Assembly (NCBI GenBank): GCA_964440555.1
Contig: CAYTSY010000008.1
Location: 1 to 42,900, forward strand
From: an uncultured Desulfobacteraceae bacterium
GTDB lineage: Bacteria; Desulfobacterota; Desulfobacteria; Desulfobacterales; UBA5616
Length of the DNA stretch: 42,900 bases
Direction: 5' to 3'
A model generated the notes under the pieces. The model was not told where the DNA came from. It worked only from the letters and a program-made list of their open reading frames with translations, and ran no database searches. Position 1 is the stretch's first letter. Each line of letters begins with the position of its first letter. Positions 5,354-39,042 of this stretch are shown here, in pieces. A program made the position numbers and the translations under genes.

Positions 5354-6536
5354 CCCGCATCATCTTGAAATAGATGTATCTGAAACTGATTTGGGCAGGA
5401 TAAAGAATAATCTGGATATAATGGAATCAGACCGGTTGTCGCCGTTTGCCGCGCAAAGCCGCAACGGCATCAGACGAAAGCAGGACACCCATTCCGAAAC
5501 CGGCTACCGGCAATGCTTTTCATTGGATGTGGACAGGATTCTGCACTCCCTTGCCTATACCCGCTACATCGACAAAACCCAGGTGTTTTCCCTGATTGTT
5601 AACGACCACATCACCCACCGGGTCCTGCATGTGCAACTGCTGTCTAAAATAGCCCGGACCATCGGCCGGTTTTTGAGCCTGAATGAGGATCTAATCGAAG
5701 CAGTCGCATTGGGCCATGACATCGGACACCCGCCTTTCGGCCATGAGGGAGAAAGAATCCTCTCGTCGCTATGCCGCCGGCAGGGAATCGGATCATTTGT
5801 TCACAGCGCCCAGAGCATTCAGTTTCTGGATCAGGTGGAACGTGACGGACAGGGATGGAACCTGTGCCTGCAGACCCTGGACGGTATCCTTTGCCATGAC
5901 GGGGAAATCCATGATCCGTTTCTGGAACCGGATCCGTGCAAATCCTTTGACGCCCTGGATGCCGAGGTCCGAAAGAAAGTTGAAGACCCGGAATGCCGGC
6001 TTCGTCCCATGACGCTGGAGGGGTGCGTAGTCCGAATGGCCGACACCATCAGTTACATCGGAAGGGACCTGGAAGACGCCATCCGTCTGGGATTGATCAA
6101 AAGAACCGATATCCCAGCAAAAATCGTCAAAATCCTGGGCAACACCAATGGAACAATCGTTTACACGCTTGTGACGGATGTCATCACAAGCAGTCTGAAT
6201 CAAGGCTTTACAGCCTTCAGCAGTCCTGTCTCCGAGGCCCTCGAAAACCTGAAGCGGTTTAATCTGGATCGTATTTACAACAACCCCAAGACCAGACAGC
6301 ACCTGGGAAATATTGAAAGCCTCTATGGCATGTTGTTTGAAAAATTTATGTCCGATTTAAAGGAGCATAACGACGCTTCAGTTATTTTTGCCGGATTTTT
6401 GAAAAACAAATCAAAAAGCTATACCGAGAGAAATCGTGATCCCGAAATCGTAAGGGATTTTATTTCCGGCATGACGGACAGCTATTTTTTAAGTCAGTGT
6501 CCCGAGGATGTAAGGCCTGTGTCGATTTTTCTGTAA
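5340..6536 (+). CDS. dGTPase-like HD-domain phosphohydrolase
   Basis: Carries RTR..H...V motifs and the HDIGHPPFGHEGE signature of the dGTP triphosphohydrolase-like family. It overlaps the ATP-grasp stop by 14 nt. Confidence 0.8.
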   Translation: MVKSNPHHLEIDVSETDLGRIKNNLDIMESDRLSPFAAQSRNGIRRKQDTHSETGYRQCFSLDVDRILHSLAYTRYIDKTQVFSLIVNDHITHRVLHVQLLSKIARTIGRFLSLNEDLIEAVALGHDIGHPPFGHEGERILSSLCRRQGIGSFVHSAQSIQFLDQVERDGQGWNLCLQTLDGILCHDGEIHDPFLEPDPCKSFDALDAEVRKKVEDPECRLRPMTLEGCVVRMADTISYIGRDLEDAIRLGLIKRTDIPAKIVKILGNTNGTIVYTLVTDVITSSLNQGFTAFSSPVSEALENLKRFNLDRIYNNPKTRQHLGNIESLYGMLFEKFMSDLKEHNDASVIFAGFLKNKSKSYTERNRDPEIVRDFISGMTDSYFLSQCPEDVRPVSIFL

Positions 6537-12684: not shown

Positions 12685-12716
12685 GTTTTGAGTGTTGAGT
12701 TTTGGGTTTTGAGTGG
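12685..12716. repeat. Heptamer array GTTTTGA GTGTTGA GTTTTGG GTTTTGA GTGG
   Basis: Read directly. It shares a 20-nt identical stretch (GTGTTGAGTTTTGGGTTTTG) with 33099-33118. Confidence 0.85.
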
Positions 12717-28381: not shown

Positions 28382-29011
28382 TCAGCCCATCGGATAAACA
28401 GCAAATATCGTGCAGCTCCAGATGGAATGGGAGATGATCACCGCAGCCAGGCTTTTCGTCCGCCAGTACAGGGCGCCCCAAAAGGCGCCGGCTACGGCAG
28501 CGGCGCCGATTAGCATGAAATTGAACGACCAGATATGAACTCCGGCATAGACCGCGGTTGACAGGAGCCACCCCTGCCATCCGCCGAAGCGGTTGATCAG
28601 GTTTTTTTGAAGATATCCCCGCCAGTATATTTCTTCGCAGGGCCCGGTGATGAAGAAAAGCAGAAGCGAGATGACCCACACGGGCGTTCCGGCGCCTTTA
28701 TCGTAAATTCCTCCGATCTGCTGGTCGGCAAAGGGCAGGAGGAACCCGGAAACTTTTTTCCCCATCCAGAAAATTCCATATAGCACTGCCGCCGATGCCA
28801 CACCCAGAAGAATGGCCCTGCCGTTAAAGGCCAGGGAATCTTTTTGATCCTTTTGCAGCAAAAAAGACAACGCCGCCAAAGTCGTTGCCGATGCGGAAAT
28901 TTTAATCCAAAAGGTGGCCCATGTCAGATAAAACGTGACAAACCACAATACGGCCGCCAGCAAGACCGTCCCGATCACTGGAGCCGGCAACTTCTTGCTT
29001 TGATTCAACAC
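28382..29011 (-). CDS. CPBP-family intramembrane glutamic endopeptidase (CAAX protease-like)
   Basis: Contains PCEEIYWRGY, AVYAGVHIW and IISHSIWS motifs. The GTG at 29011 overlaps the upstream stop (GTGTTGA). The ORF-track start at 29164 would overlap the prenyltransferase by 160 nt. Confidence 0.75.
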   Translation of the reverse strand: MLNQSKKLPAPVIGTVLLAAVLWFVTFYLTWATFWIKISASATTLAALSFLLQKDQKDSLAFNGRAILLGVASAAVLYGIFWMGKKVSGFLLPFADQQIGGIYDKGAGTPVWVISLLLFFITGPCEEIYWRGYLQKNLINRFGGWQGWLLSTAVYAGVHIWSFNFMLIGAAAVAGAFWGALYWRTKSLAAVIISHSIWSCTIFAVYPMG

Positions 29012-30018
29012 ACGCCCTCCAGGATCAGGGAAAGAACCAGCAATACACCGAATGCCGTATCCAATTGCGCGGTCCGGGCGTCGGCATCGCTGGGCATCTG
29101 CCTGATCATCAGGCGAAACAAACGCAGTGCCAGGGGAATCGAAAGCAGTACTATAAGCGACCATAAATGCAGAGGACCGAAAAAAGACATCGCCACGACG
29201 CCCAGATACGCCATGAGGATCAGAATGTAGTATAATGTCAGACCTTTTCGTTGCCCCAACAGAATGGCCAGCGTTGAAATCCCCTTGCTGTGATCGTGGG
29301 CGATATCGCGGATATTATTGGCCAGCAGAACCAGCGCAACCAGAATTCCGAAGGGCAGGGATATCCAAAAGGCGTTCATGCTTAACGTCTGTCTCTGAAC
29401 AAAATAGGCGCCCTCCACCATCAATGGGCCCCACATGAGAAATACGGACACCTCCCCCAGGGCAAGATATTTGTATTTCAGCGGGGGCGCCGTGTACATC
29501 AGGCTGGCAAACACACCGATCAGGCAAATGGCCAGAAGCTCCCATCCGCGGGTCGCCACCAGGAAGAGACCGATTAAAGCTGAGATCCCATATAGTAAAA
29601 TTACCGCTATGCCGATTTGCTTTTCGGTCAATTTCCCTTCCACCAATGGATGCGGGCGATATTGGGCGGTGGAGGCGTCGCAGGTATCCACCCCGTTTTT
29701 AACGTCATAGTAATCATTGACCAGGTTGGTGGCGGCATGCACGGCAACAGCCCCAAGCAGGGTGATGGAATAATAAATCCATGAAAAATTGCCGTCCAAT
29801 GACGCCAGGACGCTGCCCACGCTTACGGAAATTGCGCTCATCGTAAAAGACCACGGGCGGCTGGCCAGAAACCAGTTTCGATAAACGTTCACTCTAAAAT
29901 AATTCCTTCCTGCATAAACAAATGCTTTACCAGTTTTTAAAATAACAGATGATAAAAACCGGTAACTCCCATATCGGAGTTTGGGAGGGTTGTCAACGGC
30001 GCCTTTTCCCCTCAGCAA
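29005..30018 (-). CDS. UbiA-superfamily prenyltransferase, MenA-like (1,4-dihydroxy-2-naphthoate prenyltransferase family)
   Basis: Contains NLVNDYYDVKNGVD and NNIRDIAHD aspartate-rich motifs and about 8 TM segments. An alternative GTG start at 29892 is likely. Confidence 0.75.
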   Translation of the reverse strand: MLRGKGAVDNPPKLRYGSYRFLSSVILKTGKAFVYAGRNYFRVNVYRNWFLASRPWSFTMSAISVSVGSVLASLDGNFSWIYYSITLLGAVAVHAATNLVNDYYDVKNGVDTCDASTAQYRPHPLVEGKLTEKQIGIAVILLYGISALIGLFLVATRGWELLAICLIGVFASLMYTAPPLKYKYLALGEVSVFLMWGPLMVEGAYFVQRQTLSMNAFWISLPFGILVALVLLANNIRDIAHDHSKGISTLAILLGQRKGLTLYYILILMAYLGVVAMSFFGPLHLWSLIVLLSIPLALRLFRLMIRQMPSDADARTAQLDTAFGVLLVLSLILEGVC

Positions 30019-30036: not shown

Positions 30037-30687
30037 CTAGTCGGGAGCGCCGGCCTTTTCCCAATCTTCGATTTCAACGTGAGACTCAACTTCTTCCCAG
30101 CCGGTAATCATGGCTTTGATATGGGCGCAGATCGTATGGCCGGTTGTGGTCATATAAACATGAACGGCCACAAAGGATAAAATGAGAAAGGCCCCTGCCA
30201 TATGAATTGCTGCGATCATCCCCAGGGAAAGAAATTGGGAAGCACCGTCCGGCCAGGAATTGTACGACCAGTATAAAAAACCTGTTGTCATCTGTATGGG
30301 CAGCATAACGGCTGCCAGGGACAGATAGGTCAGGCGTTGAAGCGGGTTGTGCTTGGCATCTTTGCGTTTTGGGGCAGGATGGGGCCGGCCCAGGAAGATG
30401 CCATGGGCATAATAAAGAATCACGGCGAGCATTTTTTTGGTTGTCGGGATGTAACTGCGCCACTCCCCGGTGGTAAAAATCCAGAACACGAAAAAGCCGA
30501 AAGCGATGAGCCAGGTGATGCCCAAAAAATTATGGACGGCAACCGCAGATTCAAATCCGAAAAGCGTATAGACACCGTGAATTTCAAGTCCTGTGACCAG
30601 GAGCAGGACAATCAGAATCATTTGAAGCCAATGCCAGGCTCTTTCGTAGCGCGTGTAGAGATAAATACGGGTCATATGGTCGGCCAT
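30037..30687 (-). CDS. Membrane di-heme cytochrome b (Ni/Fe-hydrogenase/FdnI-type cytochrome b family)
   Basis: 4-5 TM helices with conserved His (ERAWHWLQ, AVHNFLG, AAIHMAGAF, AVHVYMT). It starts 3 nt after the stop of the octaheme cytochrome gene. Confidence 0.7.
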   Translation of the reverse strand: MADHMTRIYLYTRYERAWHWLQMILIVLLLVTGLEIHGVYTLFGFESAVAVHNFLGITWLIAFGFFVFWIFTTGEWRSYIPTTKKMLAVILYYAHGIFLGRPHPAPKRKDAKHNPLQRLTYLSLAAVMLPIQMTTGFLYWSYNSWPDGASQFLSLGMIAAIHMAGAFLILSFVAVHVYMTTTGHTICAHIKAMITGWEEVESHVEIEDWEKAGAPD

Positions 30688-30690
30688 GCG

Positions 30691-32316
30691 TCAATTCTCC
30701 TTTCTGCGAAAGCTTGCGATCACCCGTCCCAATCCATGGACAAACACGCCGAAAAACGAACCGGCAACCATGGCCCACCCGAGGATATCAATCGGTTTGA
30801 AACGGTCCCGGCCGGGCATATAGAAACCGGCGAGGTCAGCCATGCGGCCATTGGAATCAACGTGGCATTCCACGCATTTAACGACATTGTTTTTGGGCGC
30901 AACCATATGGGTGATGGGATAGACGTAGGTGCTGTCCACGAAATCGAATTTTCCGGAAAACGGCAACCCCATGAAATCCATCCCCTTTTTAAGCGCGCCG
31001 TCCCAGTCCAGAGTAGTCCAATATCCGTCGGGGCCGGACAAAAGCGGCGCCAGAAGGGTATTGTTGATTTTGTCATAAGGCTGTTTTCCCCGGTGAACCT
31101 TAAAGGGGAAAATACGGGCGTTTTTGTCATTTTGATCGCCTAAAGGCCGGCTGACGCGAACCGGTTGGGACGGGTCGATCACATCTTTTACCGTGAGGGT
31201 CACGATGGAGCCATTGAACCAGAAATATTCCGGCATAACATTTTTTTCCCATTTCATCTGCCCCTTGATGGAAAGGTAGTCGTCCTTACCCAACTCGCCC
31301 TTGACCGTGAAGGGTTTCCCGGCCTTTGTTTTGCCGGCTTTGGACCAGTCCCAGCTCATTTTGGTAGGATTGACCCGCGCAAATGTCGGGATATGGCAGG
31401 ATTGGCATGCCACTTTGTCCGTGTGGTCGTTGGGTTTATCTCCTGATTCGTGAGGAAAGGCCGTGTGACAGGATTCACAAGTGATTTTAGGCGTCAGGTC
31501 GTCTTCGACCAGACTTTTACGGTCTTTTGCCGCCGGTATGGTATAGATTCTCCCGGCTATGCGGTGTTGTTTGGTGGTATGGCATCGGGTGCAGGCAAAG
31601 TCCTGGCCGTCAGCGCCCATGTGAACATCCAGCGTCTTGTTGGGATCGGCCATGGAGGAGTCCAGGTCCCCATGTTTGACGCCGTCGCCGCCGCCGCCGT
31701 AAAAATGGCATGAACCGCAATTTTTACGGCCCGGCCGGGCCACCTGGGAAACGGCATTCTGAAGGTCCTTTTGAATTTCCGCAGCGATTTCCTTCTCCGC
31801 CGGATCATCTGATTCGGAGAAATACCCATAATCCTCAAAGGCTTCTGAAAAATTGAATTCCTTTTGGCCATGACAGACCAGACAGTTGACCAGGTCGGCT
31901 TTGCCGTTCCAGCCGGTATGGCAGGCCTGGCATTGTTTGTCATTCATGTAATTGGTCGAGATGCAGAAATTGTTGACCGAATCCCCGGCTTTTCCGGTTT
32001 TCTTCCCGTTGATTTCGGTGGGCGCAAGCCATGTCCAGTGGATAGTTTGCGTAAACTGCCGATGAGCCTCGGAGTGACAGGAGATGCAGGCGCCGGTGAT
32101 CTGTGATCCGGATTCAAAGGCCTGTTGGAGGGCTTTATGCTTGGTGTGGTCCGTCGTGGACCAATGCGTGCCGTCCTTGGTGGCCTGTCTGGCCATGGCG
32201 CGTCCAACGGGCCGGCGCTCATCCTGGGCGTTGAGATCAGAAATCGCCGTCGATAAGGATAAGACCAGACCGATCAGCACCGGAAATCCACATAACCGGA
32301 AAATATTTCGTTTCAT
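30691..32316 (-). CDS. Octaheme c-type cytochrome, tetrathionate-reductase (Otr) family-like, with C-terminal TM anchor
   Basis: Eight CxxCH motifs: CISCH, CQACH, CLVCH, CGSCH, CTRCH, CESCH, CQSCH, CVECH. Signal peptide from the ATG at 32316 (MKRNIFRLCGFPVLIGLVLSLS). Otr-like N-terminus STTDHTKHKAL...CISCH...HWTW. C-terminal hydrophobic helix ILGWAMVAGSFFGVFVHGLG. Confidence 0.85.
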   Translation of the reverse strand: MKRNIFRLCGFPVLIGLVLSLSTAISDLNAQDERRPVGRAMARQATKDGTHWSTTDHTKHKALQQAFESGSQITGACISCHSEAHRQFTQTIHWTWLAPTEINGKKTGKAGDSVNNFCISTNYMNDKQCQACHTGWNGKADLVNCLVCHGQKEFNFSEAFEDYGYFSESDDPAEKEIAAEIQKDLQNAVSQVARPGRKNCGSCHFYGGGGDGVKHGDLDSSMADPNKTLDVHMGADGQDFACTRCHTTKQHRIAGRIYTIPAAKDRKSLVEDDLTPKITCESCHTAFPHESGDKPNDHTDKVACQSCHIPTFARVNPTKMSWDWSKAGKTKAGKPFTVKGELGKDDYLSIKGQMKWEKNVMPEYFWFNGSIVTLTVKDVIDPSQPVRVSRPLGDQNDKNARIFPFKVHRGKQPYDKINNTLLAPLLSGPDGYWTTLDWDGALKKGMDFMGLPFSGKFDFVDSTYVYPITHMVAPKNNVVKCVECHVDSNGRMADLAGFYMPGRDRFKPIDILGWAMVAGSFFGVFVHGLGRVIASFRRKEN

Positions 32317-32336
32317 GTCGTTTCTCCGCTTATTCC

Positions 32337-32359
32337 CCCTCCCCCTCGATGGGGGAGGG
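32337..32359 (-). other. Perfect 9-bp G/C hairpin between the small secreted protein gene and the octaheme cytochrome gene
   Basis: On the + strand: CCCTCCCCC-tcgat-GGGGGAGGG. It sits 17 nt after the upstream stop and about 20 nt before the octaheme ATG, with no T tract. Confidence 0.45.
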
Positions 32360-32375
32360 CCGGGGGGTGCGGGAT

Positions 32376-32723
32376 TTATTTGCATTTTGCCGGCGCAGGC
32401 GAATCCGCGGCGTGGTCATGCAGGTACGTATAGATGTCCAACAACTCCTGTGCAGAGAGTTTGTCCCATTCCGCCTTGCATCCGAATTCCTCAAAGTCTT
32501 TGCCGGCAAAGACTTTTTTCCATTGCGCCTGTGTTTTGCTGTCCGGGCCGATTGCCGGTTTTGCGGAATCTGTGCCGCCCCGTTCATGACACAGTTTGTA
32601 AATGTTGCGATAGGCGTATTTACCTTTTCTTCCATCCCCCTTGTCTTCCGACAACGCCGAACCGATGCAGGTCAATACGAATACAACCGATAAAATGCCG
32701 ATCCACCATTTTTTGTTCATCAT
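32376..32723 (-). CDS. Small secreted protein, cytochrome-c-like layout but with a lone CH (YKLCH) instead of CxxCH
   Basis: Signal peptide MMNKKWWIGILSVVFVLTCIGSALS. The mature region has GKYAYRNIYKLCHERGG...P..KTQAQWKKVF...LSAQELLDIYTYLHDHAADSPAPAKC. Confidence 0.55.
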   Translation of the reverse strand: MMNKKWWIGILSVVFVLTCIGSALSEDKGDGRKGKYAYRNIYKLCHERGGTDSAKPAIGPDSKTQAQWKKVFAGKDFEEFGCKAEWDKLSAQELLDIYTYLHDHAADSPAPAKCK

Positions 32724-32764: not shown

Positions 32765-33079
32765 TTAAAAAACCAGATAACGGTCAACCATGTTTAACAT
32801 TTCCGCGTTTCTCCCCTGGGTGGCAAAATCCTTGAATCCGACGCCGGGGACCTCCTGTTCACGGCCATGAAGACCGTTGGCGCGAAAACTGACATCGCAA
32901 ATGGAGAGCTTCGCCTTTCCCACCAGTTGTTTAAATTCCTGCGCCATGGTCAGAAGGACCCCTTTTCCGGTGAAAAAAATACGCACCTGTATGGCTTTTT
33001 CATGAGCTGCGGCGGTCAGTTTGACCACATCGGCCAGATGCCGGTCGGAGCTGACGAGGATGCCGAGGGTTTTTTCCAT
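32765..33079 (-). CDS. DsrE/DsrF-like family protein
   Basis: 104 aa. LGILVSSD...LTAAAHEKAIQVRIFFTGKGV...LSICDVSFRANGL...DRYLVF has the length and pattern of the DsrE/F fold, with one candidate active Cys. Confidence 0.55.
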   Translation of the reverse strand: MEKTLGILVSSDRHLADVVKLTAAAHEKAIQVRIFFTGKGVLLTMAQEFKQLVGKAKLSICDVSFRANGLHGREQEVPGVGFKDFATQGRNAEMLNMVDRYLVF

Positions 33080-33093
33080 GGATGACTCCTTTA

Positions 33094-33615
33094 TCAGAGT
33101 GTTGAGTTTTGGGTTTTGGGTTTTGAGTTTTGGGTCATGGCCCGGGTCACTTTTTCAAAAAGAGTTTCCCGGACGTTTTTATCCGTCGCATACTTGAGGA
33201 TCAGCAGATAGATCCCTTCCCGGATGAGATCCGACTCATCTTTATTTCTGTTGCATTCAACACGCTTGAGTACTCCCAGCAATTCAGAGACTTCCGGGCT
33301 GATCCGGGTCCTGACCTCGATGGACAGGGGGCCCATGGCTTCGAAGGGGATTTCTTCGCTTCCTTCCCGGCAGGCGTCGTCGTGAGATGCATACTGAACG
33401 ATGAGGCGGTAGCACTCCATGGCCTTGTCCGCAAATCGCTGCTTTAAAAACTCTTCGCCCAGAGACGTGATGATTTTCCTGGCCCAGAAGGCTTCATCGC
33501 TGTCTGAGCCGTATTTTTCGAGTACTTTTGTAGCTGATTCAAGCGCACGGTCATAGCACGCGCAACGTTCCAGGACCATGGCCCTGACAAGATCCTTATC
33601 CATCTGTTCCTCCAT
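33094..33615 (-). CDS. Conserved hypothetical protein; C-terminal part resembles a ribbon-helix-helix (CopG-like) domain
   Basis: 173 aa with five Cys (RCAC, ECY, DACR, VEC). The C-terminal LSIEVRTRISPEVSELLGVLKRVE...DLIREGIYLLILKY fits a beta-alpha-alpha pattern. The last 13 codons translate the heptamer repeat. Confidence 0.5.
   Translation of the reverse strand: MEEQMDKDLVRAMVLERCACYDRALESATKVLEKYGSDSDEAFWARKIITSLGEEFLKQRFADKAMECYRLIVQYASHDDACREGSEEIPFEAMGPLSIEVRTRISPEVSELLGVLKRVECNRNKDESDLIREGIYLLILKYATDKNVRETLFEKVTRAMTQNSKPKTQNSTL
33099..33136. repeat. Heptamer array GTGTTGA GTTTTGG GTTTTGG GTTTTGA GTTTTGG GTC
   Basis: Read directly. It uses the same units as 12685-12716 and overlaps the 3' end of CDS 33094-33615. 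Confidence 0.85.
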
Positions 33616-33636
33616 ATCCCCGCAGCGGTTAATTTT

Positions 33637-33810
33637 TTACCACCAGCAAATTACTTTATCGTGGGAAAAGATCTCATCCACCAGGGCGGCCCAATCCACC
33701 TCTTTTTCATAAAGGGCCTTTACGGACGATTCGCCGGATTTTGAGACCAACCCGCAAAGTTTTTCCACTGTTTCATCGGGTTCGGACCGTAAAATATGAA
33801 GCACTTTCAT
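33637..33810 (-). CDS. Small conserved hypothetical protein (DsrH/TusB-like size)
   Basis: The ATG at 33810 is preceded by GAGGGAA. MKVLHILRSEPDETVEKL... ends in ICWW. The family call is tentative. Confidence 0.45.
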   Translation of the reverse strand: MKVLHILRSEPDETVEKLCGLVSKSGESSVKALYEKEVDWAALVDEIFSHDKVICWW

Positions 33811-33818
33811 TTGTTCCC

Positions 33819-34106
33819 TCAAAAGGGGATGACGACATCCGCCTCGTTTATTTTTTCAGCAATCTCGGCCATGGTCGCATACTGAAAGCCGTAGTTTTCA
33901 ACGTTGACCGGGTCGTTTGAAAATCGCTTTCCTTCCATTTCATCCAAAAAATCCATGTTGTCCTGATAGGCTTCATCCATGTTGACGATCGGGTGATGAA
34001 GGACGACCATGGTCACCTCAGTGTCTTCAAGCAACAACCCCAGGCTGGTTCTTAAACCCTCGTATTGCTGTTCGACGTCTTTGATTAGAACGATTGCTTT
34101 TTTCAT
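33819..34106 (-). CDS. DsrE-like fold protein lacking Cys (DsrF/H-like)
   Basis: 95 aa. MKKAIVLIKD...VTMVVLHHPIV...ADVVIPF has a DsrEFH-like length and beta-alpha pattern, with no cysteine. Confidence 0.5.
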   Translation of the reverse strand: MKKAIVLIKDVEQQYEGLRTSLGLLLEDTEVTMVVLHHPIVNMDEAYQDNMDFLDEMEGKRFSNDPVNVENYGFQYATMAEIAEKINEADVVIPF

Positions 34107-34124
34107 CTGTTGTAGCCTTTGGTT

Positions 34125-34370
34125 TCAGCCTTTTTTAATATAATAACGGGTAAATCCCGCTGAATCATCCACCATTCCCAAAAACGCGTTGCCTCCCTTG
34201 GCGCCGAAGTCCGGGATATCGTTTTTCGAACCCGGGTCCGTTCCCAGAATTTCCAGAATTTGTCCTGTCTTCATGTCCTTGAGCATTTTTTTTGTTTTAA
34301 GCAACGGCATGGGACAGGTTAATCCCCGGGCGTCGAGCAATTTGTCTGCCTGAATCGAATTGACATCCAT
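34125..34370 (-). CDS. tusA: TusA-family sulfurtransferase (SirA-like)
   Basis: 81 aa with the canonical LDARGLTCPMPLLKTKKML motif (the CPxP active-site Cys). Confidence 0.85.
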   Translation of the reverse strand: MDVNSIQADKLLDARGLTCPMPLLKTKKMLKDMKTGQILEILGTDPGSKNDIPDFGAKGGNAFLGMVDDSAGFTRYYIKKG

Positions 34371-34392
34371 TTTATACTCATCCTTTCGATGA

Positions 34393-35589
34393 TTAAAAAA
34401 TTACAAATTTTTCCGTTTTTTCATTCCAGATCGCGATAAACACCCATGCCAGCAGAAATATGAAAAATAGCGGAAGCGCGACAGACCATGAAAACACGCT
34501 GATCAGAGAAACGCCTTTGCCCAGTTTTTCATCGAGGTTCAAAACCGTCAACAACCGGGCCGCCGATGAATTGGCAAGGGCAAAGGCCACCAGCGTAGAA
34601 ACCAGTTTAAGGTGTCCTTCACCGATCCGCCACAGCGTGCTGGAGCCACATCCGCCGGCCAGGAGCATGCCGAATCCGAAAATCAGTCCTCCGGTCATGC
34701 TTCCGAGCCAGAACGGATGGTAGATCCCCATGGTTTCCGGCTGAATATAGCTCCACTTGATGACTGCCGAACCTGCTCCGTAAATCATCAGGCTCATGGC
34801 CACGACCCGCACCATTTCCGCGTCTCCGGTCATAAACGGGCAGCGGAAGGCCCTTACAAAGCAAAAGCGTGACCGGTGCATGGTCAGGCCGATCAAAAAA
34901 CCGAAGAACAACAGTCCGCCGATCTGGGTTTTATCCATCCATGAATAGAGATAGAAAATGGCCAGGGCTGCAGCAAAAACCGATCCGCCGACCCAGGGTT
35001 GAACCTTTGCCCAGTTTATGCGTGCCTCACGGGCCGTTTCCCGGGGAGGATCAACCGTTATTTTGGGTGGGAATCGATCCATTTCCCACAACAAGTATCG
35101 AAGACCGAGCCATGCGCCCGCGCCAAGGCCCAGCATCATGGCATATCCTCCCATGGAAAATACGCCGATAGCGGTGTAAAACCCGCCGACATTGCAGCCG
35201 CCGGCCAGGGCCGCCCCCGTCCCCATGAAAATGCCGCCGGCAATGCCTTTGGCATATTCAATCGGGGGCGACTTCCGGACTTTAAATTGTCTCCCCATCA
35301 ACGCGGAAGCCAGGGCGCCGAGCAACAAACCGGTATTGGAAACCGACATGGTATGAATCCACGGCGCATCAGGCTGTTTTTCAATGATTCCTGCAAAGTA
35401 AAACATCCAGTCTCCCCAGTTGCGATATCCCCCGACGATTCCCCAGGGACTTTGCCATAGAAAAAGGAGCAACGCCAATACCGCGATAAAGATGCCCGCC
35501 AGCCATGTGGGCCAGTCCCTTTCAAAAACAGCAATGTAATTTTTTCTGGCCTCGTCTTTTACGGTTGCCCAAAAACTTTCCGCTTCCAC
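34393..35589 (-). CDS. YeeE/YedE-family sulfur-compound (thiosulfate) transporter
   Basis: Polytopic membrane protein with the three conserved Cys-containing re-entrant motifs (LAGGCNVGGF, RSRFCFVRAF, LAGGCGSSTLW). The GTG at 35589 is preceded by AAGGAAAAG and is preferred. The ORF-track TTG at 35652 translates the repeat. Confidence 0.85.
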   Translation of the reverse strand: MEAESFWATVKDEARKNYIAVFERDWPTWLAGIFIAVLALLLFLWQSPWGIVGGYRNWGDWMFYFAGIIEKQPDAPWIHTMSVSNTGLLLGALASALMGRQFKVRKSPPIEYAKGIAGGIFMGTGAALAGGCNVGGFYTAIGVFSMGGYAMMLGLGAGAWLGLRYLLWEMDRFPPKITVDPPRETAREARINWAKVQPWVGGSVFAAALAIFYLYSWMDKTQIGGLLFFGFLIGLTMHRSRFCFVRAFRCPFMTGDAEMVRVVAMSLMIYGAGSAVIKWSYIQPETMGIYHPFWLGSMTGGLIFGFGMLLAGGCGSSTLWRIGEGHLKLVSTLVAFALANSSAARLLTVLNLDEKLGKGVSLISVFSWSVALPLFFIFLLAWVFIAIWNEKTEKFVIF

Positions 35590-35668: not shown

Positions 35669-37405
35669 TCAATACCTGAATGTCGCGGAAATATACCCGT
35701 CCCAGACATCGTCGACAATGGGATTGAGCCCGTCAAAAGACGTTGCGTCCGAAATTTTGACCGGTTGTCCCAGAGGGTTGCCGCTGCCGGTATAGGCATA
35801 GTCGTAGACCCTCCCACCCAGGGTTATGAAAAAGACGTTGCTGAAAACCGGTTGAATGTAGTAGGCTTCATAAACGCTGCCCCGAACCGCCAGTTTGCTT
35901 CCCACCAGCGAATCTTCCGCTCCGGTGAAATTGAACCAGTACTTGGAACCCCAGTTATACTCAAGACCGAGTCTGGCCGCGTACGGCATGGGGAACAGGG
36001 CGCCCGCGTAAATGCCGTAACCGTCTCTTTCCTTTAACTGGCCGTTGGAGCTCAACAGACCGACGCCCATGATTTCATAAAATGGGTTTCTGGAAATCTG
36101 GGAGGGATCCGTACGGGTATAGGAAGCAGCGAAGAACAGATCAATATCCGCCAGCCGCTCGGCAAGATTGGTGGTTAAAAGCAGAGACGCGGCGTCCCAG
36201 TCGCCGATGTTGGTCATAGGTTCCATACGGGTGATGAATGCACCGCTGTTTTGCTCAAAGTAGTATTCGTTGATGCCGTCCCCGGTCATGTCCATCCGGG
36301 AGACGATAAACGGCATGACGGTTAAGCCCGTAAATCCATCGGTGATGTCCCAGGCATGGGCATAATTAAACACCGCGCTGGTCGTATCGTTGTCAAAGAG
36401 CGTGGCGATGAAGCCGAACATATGGACATCATCGACCTCGGGCTGGGTGGAACTTAAAGAGGAACTGTTGCCCCAGTCACCCTCAAATCCTACGCCGTAG
36501 CAGAGTTTAAAATCTGCGCCCGGAATGCCGGTAACCTCTTCCAATCCAAAGTTCAGTGAAGCCCCGTCAAATTGCCAGTTGATAATCGTGCCCAGCGGAG
36601 AACCGCCTTCAAGGCTGTAGCTTGCGTATTCCAGCGGCGGCCCATCGGTTGACGGCCGTCTCCCCAGACTGAAGTTGACGGGAACAGACCCCATTTCGTC
36701 CTTGTAATTGAAATATGCCCGTTCCAGGCGAAGGGTGTCTCCATGGGGGAGGCTTGATGAGTTGCCGTCAAAGGTTACATCGCCTAAACTCCCCTGATTG
36801 AATTTAACGCCGGTGCTGTCCCCGAAAACTTTATACGCGGCAAGCCGTCCGCCGAAGCTCAATTGATCGTTATATTTGGAGTTGAAGTTCAAGCGGAATT
36901 TATTGGTGTAAATAATGTCGTTGTCCACATCGGTTTTCATGGGCGGGGGAACCATGCCCGCACCGGCCATGGCCGCCATGCCACCCTGAATCTGGGCAAG
37001 GGTCGCGCCGTTGAATCCTCCAGCCGGCGGGGGGGAAGGGTTAAAAGGCGTAAAAAAACCGCCGATGAGCGCAGACGGCGCACTGACGATATCCTGGTAA
37101 TGAATGCTGTCCGCCCTGGATCGGAGTTCAACGCCCAGCGCCAGTTTGTCGGTGGCAGTGTGAATTTCCGCTTTGTTGAGTCTTTCGTCTATTTCAGCGA
37201 TGTCGGACTCTTTTTTGGCGTCGGCCGTTTCCATGGTTTCGATTTTTTGTTGCAGGGTTGTAAGATTGTCCTGCATGGTTTTGAGTTGCTCTTTGAGGGC
37301 GTTTACATCATCAGCAGCGGCAACGGTTTGTGAAAACAACAAAAGCGAAAAACATATCGCCGCCGGCCATACGCCCCGGATCATTTTACCGGTTTTTTTC
37401 ATCAT
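35669..37405 (-). CDS. Outer-membrane beta-barrel protein with N-terminal coiled coil (DUF3373-like putative porin)
   Basis: ATG-ATG at 37405 is preceded by AAAGGAGGAG. Signal peptide ...LLLFSQTVAAADD, then a heptad-rich segment LKEQLKTMQDNLTTLQQKIETME. The long beta-rich region has alternating aromatic/Gly residues and a terminal ...SATFRY. Confidence 0.65.
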   Translation of the reverse strand: MMKKTGKMIRGVWPAAICFSLLLFSQTVAAADDVNALKEQLKTMQDNLTTLQQKIETMETADAKKESDIAEIDERLNKAEIHTATDKLALGVELRSRADSIHYQDIVSAPSALIGGFFTPFNPSPPPAGGFNGATLAQIQGGMAAMAGAGMVPPPMKTDVDNDIIYTNKFRLNFNSKYNDQLSFGGRLAAYKVFGDSTGVKFNQGSLGDVTFDGNSSSLPHGDTLRLERAYFNYKDEMGSVPVNFSLGRRPSTDGPPLEYASYSLEGGSPLGTIINWQFDGASLNFGLEEVTGIPGADFKLCYGVGFEGDWGNSSSLSSTQPEVDDVHMFGFIATLFDNDTTSAVFNYAHAWDITDGFTGLTVMPFIVSRMDMTGDGINEYYFEQNSGAFITRMEPMTNIGDWDAASLLLTTNLAERLADIDLFFAASYTRTDPSQISRNPFYEIMGVGLLSSNGQLKERDGYGIYAGALFPMPYAARLGLEYNWGSKYWFNFTGAEDSLVGSKLAVRGSVYEAYYIQPVFSNVFFITLGGRVYDYAYTGSGNPLGQPVKISDATSFDGLNPIVDDVWDGYISATFRY

Positions 37406-37454
37406 CTGCTCCTCCTTTGAGTATGATTTTTTTATTTGTTTGCGCATATGATAA

Positions 37455-37469
37455 TCAATAATTGTGCCA
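37455..37469 (-). promoter_or_regulatory. Candidate sigma54 (-24/-12) promoter for the porin-yeeE-tusA... operon
   Basis: The minus strand reads TGGCACAATTATTGA. This has exact consensus spacing (TGGCAC-N5-TTGC) with TTGA in place of TTGC. It lies about 50 nt upstream of the ATG at 37405. Confidence 0.5.
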
Positions 37470-37575
37470 TGAGATCCAGCGCAATTGAAAATCTGATATA
37501 ACCATCTGAAAATGAAATAAAAATATGTGCAACAGGTTTGCAGAAAACGCTCTTGAAAAATTTGCCGGTCGTGGT

Positions 37576-37627
37576 AATGTTAACAAATGTTAATTATCAA
37601 CATTAACATGTTAACCGTGGCATTAAC
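37576..37627. promoter_or_regulatory. Cluster of GTTAAC/GTTAAT/ATTAAC dyads (candidate enhancer/UAS sites)
   Basis: The region reads AATGTTAACAAATGTTAATTATCAACATTAACATGTTAACCGTGGCATTAAC. It contains a perfect 8-bp inverted repeat ATGTTAAT-N7-ATTAACAT (37587-37609), plus ATGTTAAC at 37577 and 37608. It is centred about 135 bp upstream of the -24/-12 element and abuts the regulator's RBS. Confidence 0.4.
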
Positions 37628-37638
37628 AGGAGGTGCCC

Positions 37639-39042
37639 ATGGAAATCGCCGCTTATTGGAAGACCATAGCGGATACGCTGCAGGACGGGCTGTTGGTGAT
37701 TGACCCGGAAGGAAACATCCGGGCGGCCAATCAGGCAGCTTCGCGGATCACCGGTTATTCAAAAGAGGAACTCGTCGGCAAGTCCTGCCGCATTCTCAAT
37801 TGCACCGGCTGCAACATCATCGGCAAAGGCCCGGGTGAAAACTGGTGCGGTCTTTTTTCAAAAGGGGAGGTAAGGGAAAAAAAGTGCCTGATCACCAACC
37901 TGGATCGCCGGGCTGTTCATATCCTCAAATCGGCCAAGGTGTTGCGCGATGATGACGGCCGGATAGTCGGCGCCGTGGAAAATCTTACCGATATCACCGA
38001 TAAAGTCAGACAACAGCAGGAGTTGACCCGCCTGCGGCAGACCTTTCACCTGGATGACGGCTATTGCGGGATATTAGGCAAATCCCCGGTCATGCAAAAC
38101 CTGTTTGCGCTCATCGAAAACGTTTCCCAATCCGATGCACCGGTCATCATTTCGGGTCAGAGCGGAACCGGAAAAGAATTGGCGGCCCGCGCTATACATG
38201 AAACCGGTCCCCGTAAGAAGAAACCCTTCATCAAGGTCAATTGCGCAGCCTTGAACGAAAATGTCCTGGAAAGTGAACTCTTCGGCCATGTCCGGGGAGC
38301 ATATACCGGTGCTGACAGGACGCGGATCGGCAGGTTTGAAGCGGCTCACGAAGGGACTATTTTTTTAGATGAAATCGGAGACTTGCCGTTATCCATCCAG
38401 GTTAAGCTGCTGCGTGTTTTAGAAGAAAAGAAGATCGAGCGCGTGGGGGATCACCGACCGATCTCCGTGGACGTCAGAATCATCACCGCCACACATAAAA
38501 ACCTGGAGTCTCTGATCGAAAAACAACTGTTTCGGGAAGATCTGTTTTTTCGGATCAATGTATTTCCCCTGCATTGTCCTTCCCTGGTTGATCGCATCGA
38601 AGATATCCCCATCATTGCACAACACTTTATCCACCAAAGCGCCGCAAAAACAGGGAAAAAGATCCTCGGTCTGACGCCGGAAGCCATGGAAAAACTGATG
38701 GCCTATCCCTGGCCCGGCAATATCCGCGAACTTAGAAATACCATTGAGTATGCTTTTGTCCTCTGTCCCAGCGGAGGCATTGATGTGCGGCATTTGCCGC
38801 CCAACGTGGCAAGAGGCCAAATACTTGACCGTAAAGGACCAAGCGGCGTGCAACGTTTTGGCGATGCGCAGAGGGATCGTATCGTTGATGCGCTCAACCG
38901 GGCCGGCCAAAGCCGGACCGATGCCGCCCGGCTCCTGGGTATAAGCCGTGTAACATTATGGAAGCAAATGAAAAAATATAACATCACCCCTGAGGCAGAC
39001 AGCCAGGGAATCCAAAAGCCAACGCTGGTCGATGAATCGTGA
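37639..39042 (+). CDS. Sigma54-dependent transcriptional activator with N-terminal Cys-rich PAS domain
   Basis: PAS region (LLVIDPEGNIRAANQAASRITGYSKEELVGKSC). AAA+ domain with Walker A GQSGTGKE, ESELFGHVRGAYTGA (GAFTGA-type loop) and LDEIGD. C-terminal Fis-type HTH AARLLGISRVTLWKQMKKY. The ATG at 37639 is preceded by AGGAGG. Confidence 0.9.
   Translation: MEIAAYWKTIADTLQDGLLVIDPEGNIRAANQAASRITGYSKEELVGKSCRILNCTGCNIIGKGPGENWCGLFSKGEVREKKCLITNLDRRAVHILKSAKVLRDDDGRIVGAVENLTDITDKVRQQQELTRLRQTFHLDDGYCGILGKSPVMQNLFALIENVSQSDAPVIISGQSGTGKELAARAIHETGPRKKKPFIKVNCAALNENVLESELFGHVRGAYTGADRTRIGRFEAAHEGTIFLDEIGDLPLSIQVKLLRVLEEKKIERVGDHRPISVDVRIITATHKNLESLIEKQLFREDLFFRINVFPLHCPSLVDRIEDIPIIAQHFIHQSAAKTGKKILGLTPEAMEKLMAYPWPGNIRELRNTIEYAFVLCPSGGIDVRHLPPNVARGQILDRKGPSGVQRFGDAQRDRIVDALNRAGQSRTDAARLLGISRVTLWKQMKKYNITPEADSQGIQKPTLVDES

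Follow-up and report, generated by a model that had tools for sequence, protein, structure and literature searches.

A YeeE-TusA-DsrEFH type II sulfur-relay cluster with an accessory sixth gene in an uncultured Desulfobacteraceae bacterium

We analyzed a row of genes at positions 33,094 to 35,589 of a 42,900-nucleotide (nt) stretch of DNA from an uncultured Desulfobacteraceae bacterium (contig CAYTSY010000008.1 of assembly GCA_964440555.1; the whole stretch is called the window below). An earlier reading made from the sequence alone, here the original prediction, had placed a YTD-type sulfur cluster in this row, composed of YeeE, TusA, a DsrE-fold protein plus a pair of conserved hypothetical proteins, one of them possibly DNA-binding. 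We found that the row belongs to a cluster orthologous to the published YTD, or YeeE-TusA-DsrEFH type II, clusters, that the cluster continues into a further gene, p104, and that p173, the gene before p104, is an accessory sixth member.

A YeeE-TusA-DsrEFH type II cluster with its DsrE-like gene last

The genes of the cluster, in order of transcription, are:

34393-35589, minus strand: YeeE/YedE-family sulfur transporter, 398 amino acids (aa) (PF04143, Sulf_transp, expectation value E = 2.8e-48)
34125-34370, minus strand: TusA sulfur carrier, 81 aa, with a CPMP motif (PF01206, E = 2.1e-22)
33819-34106, minus strand: p95, putative small subunit, DsrF- or DsrH-like and without Cys, of the DsrEFH type II trio (synteny; weak Pfam DsrE match)
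33637-33810, minus strand: p57, putative 57-aa subunit of the trio, ending in ICWW (synteny and alignment; no family match)
33094-33615 (probable start 33603), minus strand: p173, accessory two-domain protein, 173-aa open reading frame (ORF) (ORF, homologues, AlphaFold)
32765-33079, minus strand: p104, DsrE-like (type II) subunit, 104 aa, with Cys61 (Pfam DsrE, E = 1.2e-3)

The five consecutive ORFs of the original prediction are all present, each on the minus strand, and the sequence features read in them all held up. The three YeeE cysteines, in GGCNVGG, RFCF and GGCGSS, are invariant in 64 homologues, as is Cys19 of the TusA CPMP motif in 70 sequences; the 57-aa protein does end in ICWW, and the 173-aa ORF has five cysteines, four of them conserved. 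From its GTG start YeeE is 398 aa long, compared to 397-398 aa in homologues. The relay genes are spaced 8-33 nt apart; p104 begins 14 nt past the p173 stop codon (the two genes abut in locus L013) and is part of the relay unit.

We then searched the p104 alignment against one genome per species, which gave a set of 80 named loci, and mapped the window proteins onto these loci by tblastn. The loci come mostly from Desulfobacterales, with others from Desulfohalobiaceae and from marine Acidobacteriota of the Sulfomarinibacter and Thermoanaerobaculia type, and their recurrent core is yeeE-tusA-p95-p57-p104. Three of them (L052, L066 and L021) belong to Desulfocicer vacuolatum DSM 3385, Desulfospira joergensenii DSM 10085 and Desulfosarcina widdelii PP31, for which Table S5 of PMC13293266 gives "YeeE-TusA-DsrEFH type II", so the link to the published cluster is direct and does not rest on analogy. 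The cluster itself, once called the "YTD gene cluster" (Umezawa et al. 2020, cited in PMC13293266; PMC13047784), is already known, and its function has been partly shown in vitro for orthologues. Two 2026 papers used structure prediction to assemble its DsrE-like protein and two hypothetical proteins into a DsrEFH-like complex (PMC13293266, PMC13047784), and with Electronema aureum proteins sulfur was transferred in vitro from TusA to DsrE Cys67 and on to DsrC, the complex being named "DsrEFH type II" (PMC13293266). Like these clusters, the window places a yeeE/yedE-family gene adjacent to a tusA with Cys-Pro-x-Pro, has a DsrE-like gene with a conserved cysteine (p104), and co-occurs with a dissimilatory sulfite reductase gene in its own genome, dsrA on contig C44 (TIGR02064, 607 bits, above cut-off). 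Immediately downstream of dsrA lies a further sulfite-reductase-like frame (87 bits, below cut-off), probably dsrB. The YTD-type call of the original prediction is therefore sound, as the locus is orthologous to published clusters, but its mapping of genes to roles was wrong in two places.

The first of these concerns DsrE, which had been sought in the 95-aa protein. By its sequence, the DsrE-like subunit of the cluster is p104, which lies beyond the row originally described: the Pfam DsrE model matches 30 of the 31 p104 family members (best E = 8.9e-7), all 80 sequences have Cys61 (SICDVS), and some sources name the homologues "DsrE family protein". The 95-aa protein does lack cysteine, both in the window and as a conserved residue in its family, but it is not the cluster's DsrE; its Pfam DsrE match is weak (E = 0.012, covering the last 24 residues), and similarly weak matches appear in 8 of 31 homologues. 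It follows tusA in 76 of the 80 loci. p57 is present in 79 and has an invariant C-terminal WW, with the Cys of ICWW in 75% of homologues and no family match. Both genes are also syntenic in distant dsrE-first clusters. Judging by the literature on orthologues, p95 and p57 would be the cluster's two canonical conserved hypothetical proteins (Chp1/Chp2), with DsrF-/DsrH-like folds. The second misplacement is that one of these canonical positions had been given to the 173-aa protein; by synteny with the orthologous clusters of Table S5 (PMC13293266) these positions belong to p95 and p57, and p173 falls outside the canonical set.

Distant clusters at 35-40% identity have the order p104-p95-p57, which is the published dsrE-first order, indicating that the order in the window's clade (p95-p57-p104, dsrE last) is permuted. 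Published Desulfobulbales and Dissulfurimicrobium clusters likewise put dsrE directly after tusA, whereas the window puts its DsrE-like gene last and has a sixth gene, p173, inserted before it. The window otherwise shares with YeeE-TusA-DsrEFH type II the three-Cys YeeE, the CPxP TusA, the one-Cys DsrE-like protein and the two small Cys-less partners. Because DsrE is the last gene in this clade, an annotation that relies on the gene following tusA would single out a protein that is not DsrE. The permuted order, the identification of DsrE in the window's clade and the sixth gene appear to be new here. YeeE-TusA-DsrEFH type II is central to the debate over whether many "sulfate reducers" can also oxidize or disproportionate sulfur (PMC13293266, PMC13047784); its p95/p57/p104 trio occurs in two gene orders, and in about a quarter of clusters a sixth gene lies inside the trio.

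The cluster also resembles DsrEFH type I of Allochromatium vinosum (PDB 2HY5) in its proposed role, as a hetero-oligomer that would move sulfur from TusA to the DsrE Cys and on to DsrC, and in the match of p104 to the Pfam DsrE family. The two differ in that the window's p57 is merely 57 aa long and that profile hidden Markov models (HMMs) of p95, p57 and p104 gave no match to the 2HY5 chains, nor to any other DsrEFH protein when searched against all PDB sequences, in line with the published remark that HMMs fail on these proteins because of their divergence. The type I host is a purple sulfur bacterium, whereas the window host is a Desulfobacteraceae relative with dsrA. The cable-bacteria DsrH-like protein is without the Cys20 of A. 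vinosum DsrH (PMC13047784).

p173, an accessory gene between p57 and p104

The second ATG of the 173-aa ORF (33603, MDKDL) is preceded by a GGAGG ribosome-binding site and matches the N-terminus of every homologue, so p173 probably starts there and its product would be 169 aa long. At the other end of the gene, a GTTTTGR heptamer array was seen at 33099-33139, with a second at 12685-12711 (6 matches versus 0 expected). On the opposite strand, positions 33099-33136 of this array form the last ~11 codons of p173 (...TQNSKPKTQNSTL), and the window protein consequently has a tail that is absent in homologues, which end near ...RAMTE.

The p173 family comprises 55 clusters at 90% identity, with a typical length of 158-160 aa. 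Domain-library scans gave no Pfam or NCBIfam model for it, and homologues are called "hypothetical" by their sources, apart from one that the Joint Genome Institute names a tetratricopeptide repeat (TPR) protein. We found the gene in 21 of the 80 loci, each time placed between p57 and p104, and every family member with readable context, distant relatives included, sits in this same mid-operon slot. Among 61 relatives, 13 carry p104 and six carry p173, each of the six together with p104. Carriers include the type strains of Desulfospira joergensenii and Desulfocicer vacuolatum as well as Sulfomarinibacter-type Acidobacteriota. As p173 is missing from about three quarters of related clusters, it is not a canonical conserved hypothetical protein; it is an accessory sixth gene and not a standard part of the cluster. 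The 2026 distribution paper PMC13293266 does not mention an inserted gene of this type, though two of its type strains carry p173, and in the literature searched we found no paper linking TPR or ribbon-helix-helix (RHH) proteins to YeeE-TusA-DsrEFH type II clusters.

On a tree of the concatenated trio, the presence of p173 requires at least 4-6 gains or losses, and the gene fills four separate clades. Locus L068 (Desulfococcaceae bacterium HSG9), whose sister is a p173-positive locus, has 178 nt separating p57 from p104, and this spacer holds a relic of the p173 C-terminal domain (...AVFLLILKYADDKN..., positions 5884-5952 of that locus), which marks a recent loss of the gene. Given this relic and the patchy distribution on the trio tree, repeated loss is the simplest reading. 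We also considered whether a shortened p173 is hidden in those p173-negative loci where p57 and p104 lie 230-285 nt apart, and rejected this idea, as these gaps hold no conserved ORF and the L068 relic was the only remnant.

A search across the trio for residues that co-vary with the presence of p173 returned the H-GRE loop of p104 alone. This loop (3 residues, positions 71-74) lies ten residues past the catalytic Cys; it occurs in 95% of p173-positive clusters and is deleted in 34 of 55 p173-negative ones. We rejected it as a sign of contact with p173 because it tracks phylogeny and has exceptions.

Architecture of p173 and its possible roles

We modeled full-length p173 with AlphaFold from a 28-sequence alignment (mean predicted local distance difference test score, pLDDT, 82), and in the model a disordered linker joins four N-terminal helices (pLDDT > 90) to three C-terminal ones. 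Searches of the PDB with the full-length protein, by HMM and by Foldseek, matched the N-terminal domain alone, as a TPR-like fold: consensus and designed TPR proteins were found by HMM at E = 0.002-0.06, with no single repeat significant, and Foldseek matched TPR structures with probability 1.0, E = 0.1 and a target-normalized template-modeling score (TM-score) of 0.6. The Pfam TPR_2 match (E = 0.076) was below cut-off. Like TPR repeat proteins, the N-domain consists of two helical hairpins that match the consensus TPR, but it has only about two repeats and carries a conserved CxC...C...C set that is atypical of TPRs. TPR-like domains are protein-binding modules. Across 22 loci C18, C20 and C68 are invariant, with C82 found in 95% and C121 in 45%. 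In distant relatives the cysteines are shifted within the same region, appearing as CxC plus C-x6-C or as CxxC, and this shifted but co-located arrangement would suit a site for a metal, a cluster or redox chemistry. The N-domain is also the better conserved half of the protein, with a mean pairwise identity of 71% compared to 47% for the C-domain.

The C-domain had been read in the original prediction as RHH, from its pattern of secondary structure, with AlphaFold named as a check. The topology fits: modeled alone (pLDDT 82), the domain has 19 extended residues followed by helices at 20-30, 40-54 and 59-77, its first 19 residues staying extended as expected of a strand that pairs only in a dimer, and the family consensus is likewise an alternating strand followed by two helices (vsVxVxT.vS.dV.e.L ... 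K.E.eLiREgiYlliLkYa). It thereby shares with RHH proteins (CopG/Arc/MetJ; ParD antitoxins) the strand-helix-helix order and a helix-B motif like '..LIREgi..', but differs in having a third helix, in lying C-terminal to a TPR-like domain, in its acidity and variable strand residues, and in giving no significant sequence or profile match. Foldseek returned three PDB matches, of which the top two were ParD2 (7r5a_D) and ParD1 (8c24_E), at E = 4-8 and a target-normalized TM-score of 0.66; across the structure searches ParD and CopG showed up, none of them significant, and a viral structure library gave nothing significant. We judge an RHH-like topology plausible from these models, with the chances roughly even.

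No sequence or profile method supported the RHH assignment. Pfam matches to Antitox_RHH, RHH_1 and RHH_3 were all below cut-off (E = 0.037-0.26); a Pfam scan of 20 p173 C-domains gave scattered sub-threshold matches, with CTD11 in four and Antitox_RHH in three; a PDB HMM search gave no match for the domain; and hhalign against an alignment built from the window genome's own CopG-type antitoxin gave a probability of 0.6%. Searched against 1.84 billion representative proteins, the C-domain profile produced 12 matches, all to its own family except one fusion with HTH_7. Tested in this way, at the level of sequence, membership of the domain in the RHH family is not supported; taken with the models, this neither establishes nor overturns the original RHH reading. 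The domain is acidic (median pI 5.0, median net charge -3.5), which speaks weakly against DNA binding, and the three outward-facing positions of its strand are not conserved. DNA binding by p173 is unsupported.

The HTH_7 fusion is P0186 (L100:1327-1683), a 118-aa metagenomic protein that joins HTH_7 to a segment like the p173 C-domain (E = 3.2e-5 versus the 1.84 billion proteins), and it is the sole relative of p173 that we found outside a relay context.

On balance, we read this part of the window as probably the cytoplasmic sulfur-relay core of a sigma54-controlled operon, a six-gene variant of YeeE-TusA-DsrEFH type II in which p173 would serve as a relay partner. In the pathway that we infer, YeeE would carry thiosulfate or sulfane sulfur through the inner membrane, following the model from published orthologues; this sulfur species could plausibly derive from the periplasmic octaheme tetrathionate-reductase-type cytochrome and enter via the DUF3373 barrel. 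TusA would load the sulfur on the Cys of its CPxP motif and pass it to Cys61 of p104, in complex with the Cys-less p95 and p57, and the p95/p57/p104 complex would hand it on to DsrC and DsrAB. p173 may be a homodimer held together by its RHH-like C-domain, whose acidity and variability suggest that it may serve only dimerization, matching the two-fold symmetry of a DsrEFH-type hexamer. Its TPR-like N-domain could bind a metal or an Fe-S center through the four cysteines, or carry a persulfide, and could dock on the two-fold-symmetric DsrEFH-II complex or on partners such as TusA or DsrC, modulating or extending the relay. A relay partner is suggested by the position of the gene mid-operon between subunit genes, by the tight spacing, by the conserved TPR-like domain with its Cys cluster, and by the acidic, variable C-domain. 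We favor such a dimeric, Cys- or metal-bearing accessory partner over a DNA-binding regulator, with about as much reason for confidence as for doubt.

Several results weigh against this reading. The grouping of the four cysteines, on which a metal or persulfide role would depend, comes from the predicted helix layout. p95 and p57 lack a DsrEFH match in the PDB, and hhalign detected no mutual homology among p95, p57 and p104, whose alignments are of low diversity. The window's own genome, in an assembly that is 75% complete, yielded no dsrC/tusE-family gene. Finally, the strand-helix-helix pattern, the ParD proteins at the top of the structural matches and the weak Antitox_RHH signal leave room for a DNA-binding role of p173.

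Such a role would make p173 an RHH transcription factor, with the beta-ribbon of its C-domain dimer binding an operator of the operon and adding feedback control atop the sigma54 activator. The four conserved cysteines would be available for sensing, and the Cys-rich N-domain could detect sulfane sulfur or redox state through persulfide or polysulfide bridging of the CxC and a distal Cys, or through a labile metal center. We consider this doubtful, yet the foremost of the alternatives. Every RHH signal described above is below significance, the profile search led back to the p173 family and a single HTH_7 protein, the C-domain is acidic, and its outward-facing strand residues are not conserved. 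The gene lies mid-operon, flanked by subunit genes, and a search upstream in related loci revealed no operator-like repeat specific to p173-positive ones. What the upstream regions do contain is a sigma54-type promoter motif, TGGCAY-N5-TTG(C/A), at the same position in 18 of 23 related loci, and 2-6 TGTTAA/TTAACA repeats in the space that separates the DUF3373 gene from the divergent activator gene (37455-37632 in the window, and in the 23 related loci), both with and without p173; in stand-alone p173-positive clusters the promoter and repeats lie upstream of yeeE. By their sequence and position, the repeats are probably binding sites of the PAS-AAA+ activator. That promoter and repeats occur irrespective of p173 indicates that the main control of the operon is independent of p173 and is accounted for by the divergent PAS-AAA+ activator, orthologues of which flank many related loci.

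Another possibility is that p173 acts as an anti-activator or partner switch, its TPR-like domain holding the PAS-AAA+ sigma54 activator and releasing it upon modification of its cysteines by sulfane sulfur. A divergent sigma54 activator and a sigma54 promoter do accompany many of these clusters, and binding a protein is what TPR-like domains do. However, most activator-linked clusters have no p173, and several p173-positive loci, including those of Acidobacteriota, show no adjacent activator within the stretch fetched, making this explanation very improbable. It is similarly hard to credit that p173 is a dispensable hitch-hiker with no role in the relay, kept in the operon by chance, for although the gene has been lost repeatedly while the cluster stayed, it stays intact and keeps its slot in both Desulfobacterota and Acidobacteriota, at identities as low as about 40%, retains its invariant cysteines and a 71%-identical N-domain, and has no family member seen outside a relay context.

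The evidence is evenly poised on whether p173 represents a new protein family, either an optional fourth component of DsrEFH type II (a Cys4 metal or persulfide adaptor) or a new class of sulfane-sulfur-sensing RHH regulators with a TPR-like sensor. If p173 is a relay component or a regulator, the five-gene account of "YTD" in the literature would lack a gene where part of the Desulfobacterales and the marine Acidobacteriota are concerned, and if it does carry sulfur or a metal or regulate the operon, it could explain physiological differences among carriers of otherwise identical clusters.

Operon surroundings

The cluster lies within a tightly packed row of minus-strand genes that spans 28.4-37.5 kilobases of the window. 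The features around it are:

37633-39042, plus strand: divergent sigma54-dependent activator (PAS + AAA+ + HTH; ORF, with the Pfam domains read on the L096 orthologue)
37469-37455, minus strand: sigma54-type promoter-like site TGGCACAATTATTGA, upstream of the operon (motif TGGCAY-N5-TTGC)
35669-37447, minus strand: DUF3373 outer-membrane beta-barrel protein, first gene of the operon (PF11853, E = 1.2e-117)
32376-32723, minus strand: p115, small secreted cytochrome-like protein, often co-located (ORF; synteny)
30691-32385, minus strand: octaheme tetrathionate-reductase-family cytochrome c (TIGR04315, E = 3.6e-156)
30037-30687, minus strand: membrane cytochrome b, thiosulfate-reductase PhsC-like (PF01292, E = 5.2e-25; NF011582, E = 2.2e-28)
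29005-30018, minus strand: putative UbiA-type prenyltransferase (UbiA/MenA-type motifs read from the sequence)

The relay module is found with other companions elsewhere. Loci L096, L097 and L106, on metagenome and NCBI contigs, hold a distant six-gene relay whose operons also encode a TorD-like chaperone, two rhodaneses, an Fe-S subunit and a molybdopterin oxidoreductase, genes that there replace the octaheme cytochrome and cytochrome b. This difference in content suggests that the module combines with different periplasmic or membrane sulfur redox modules.

p115 reads YKLCH in the window, and a full CxxCH heme motif is found in about half of its 47 homologues (Cys at the position equivalent to window residue 42 in 49%). 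Three other cysteines are invariant, among them that of the C-terminal ...AKCK. From these residues, the window protein could attach heme through a single Cys or be a heme-free variant.

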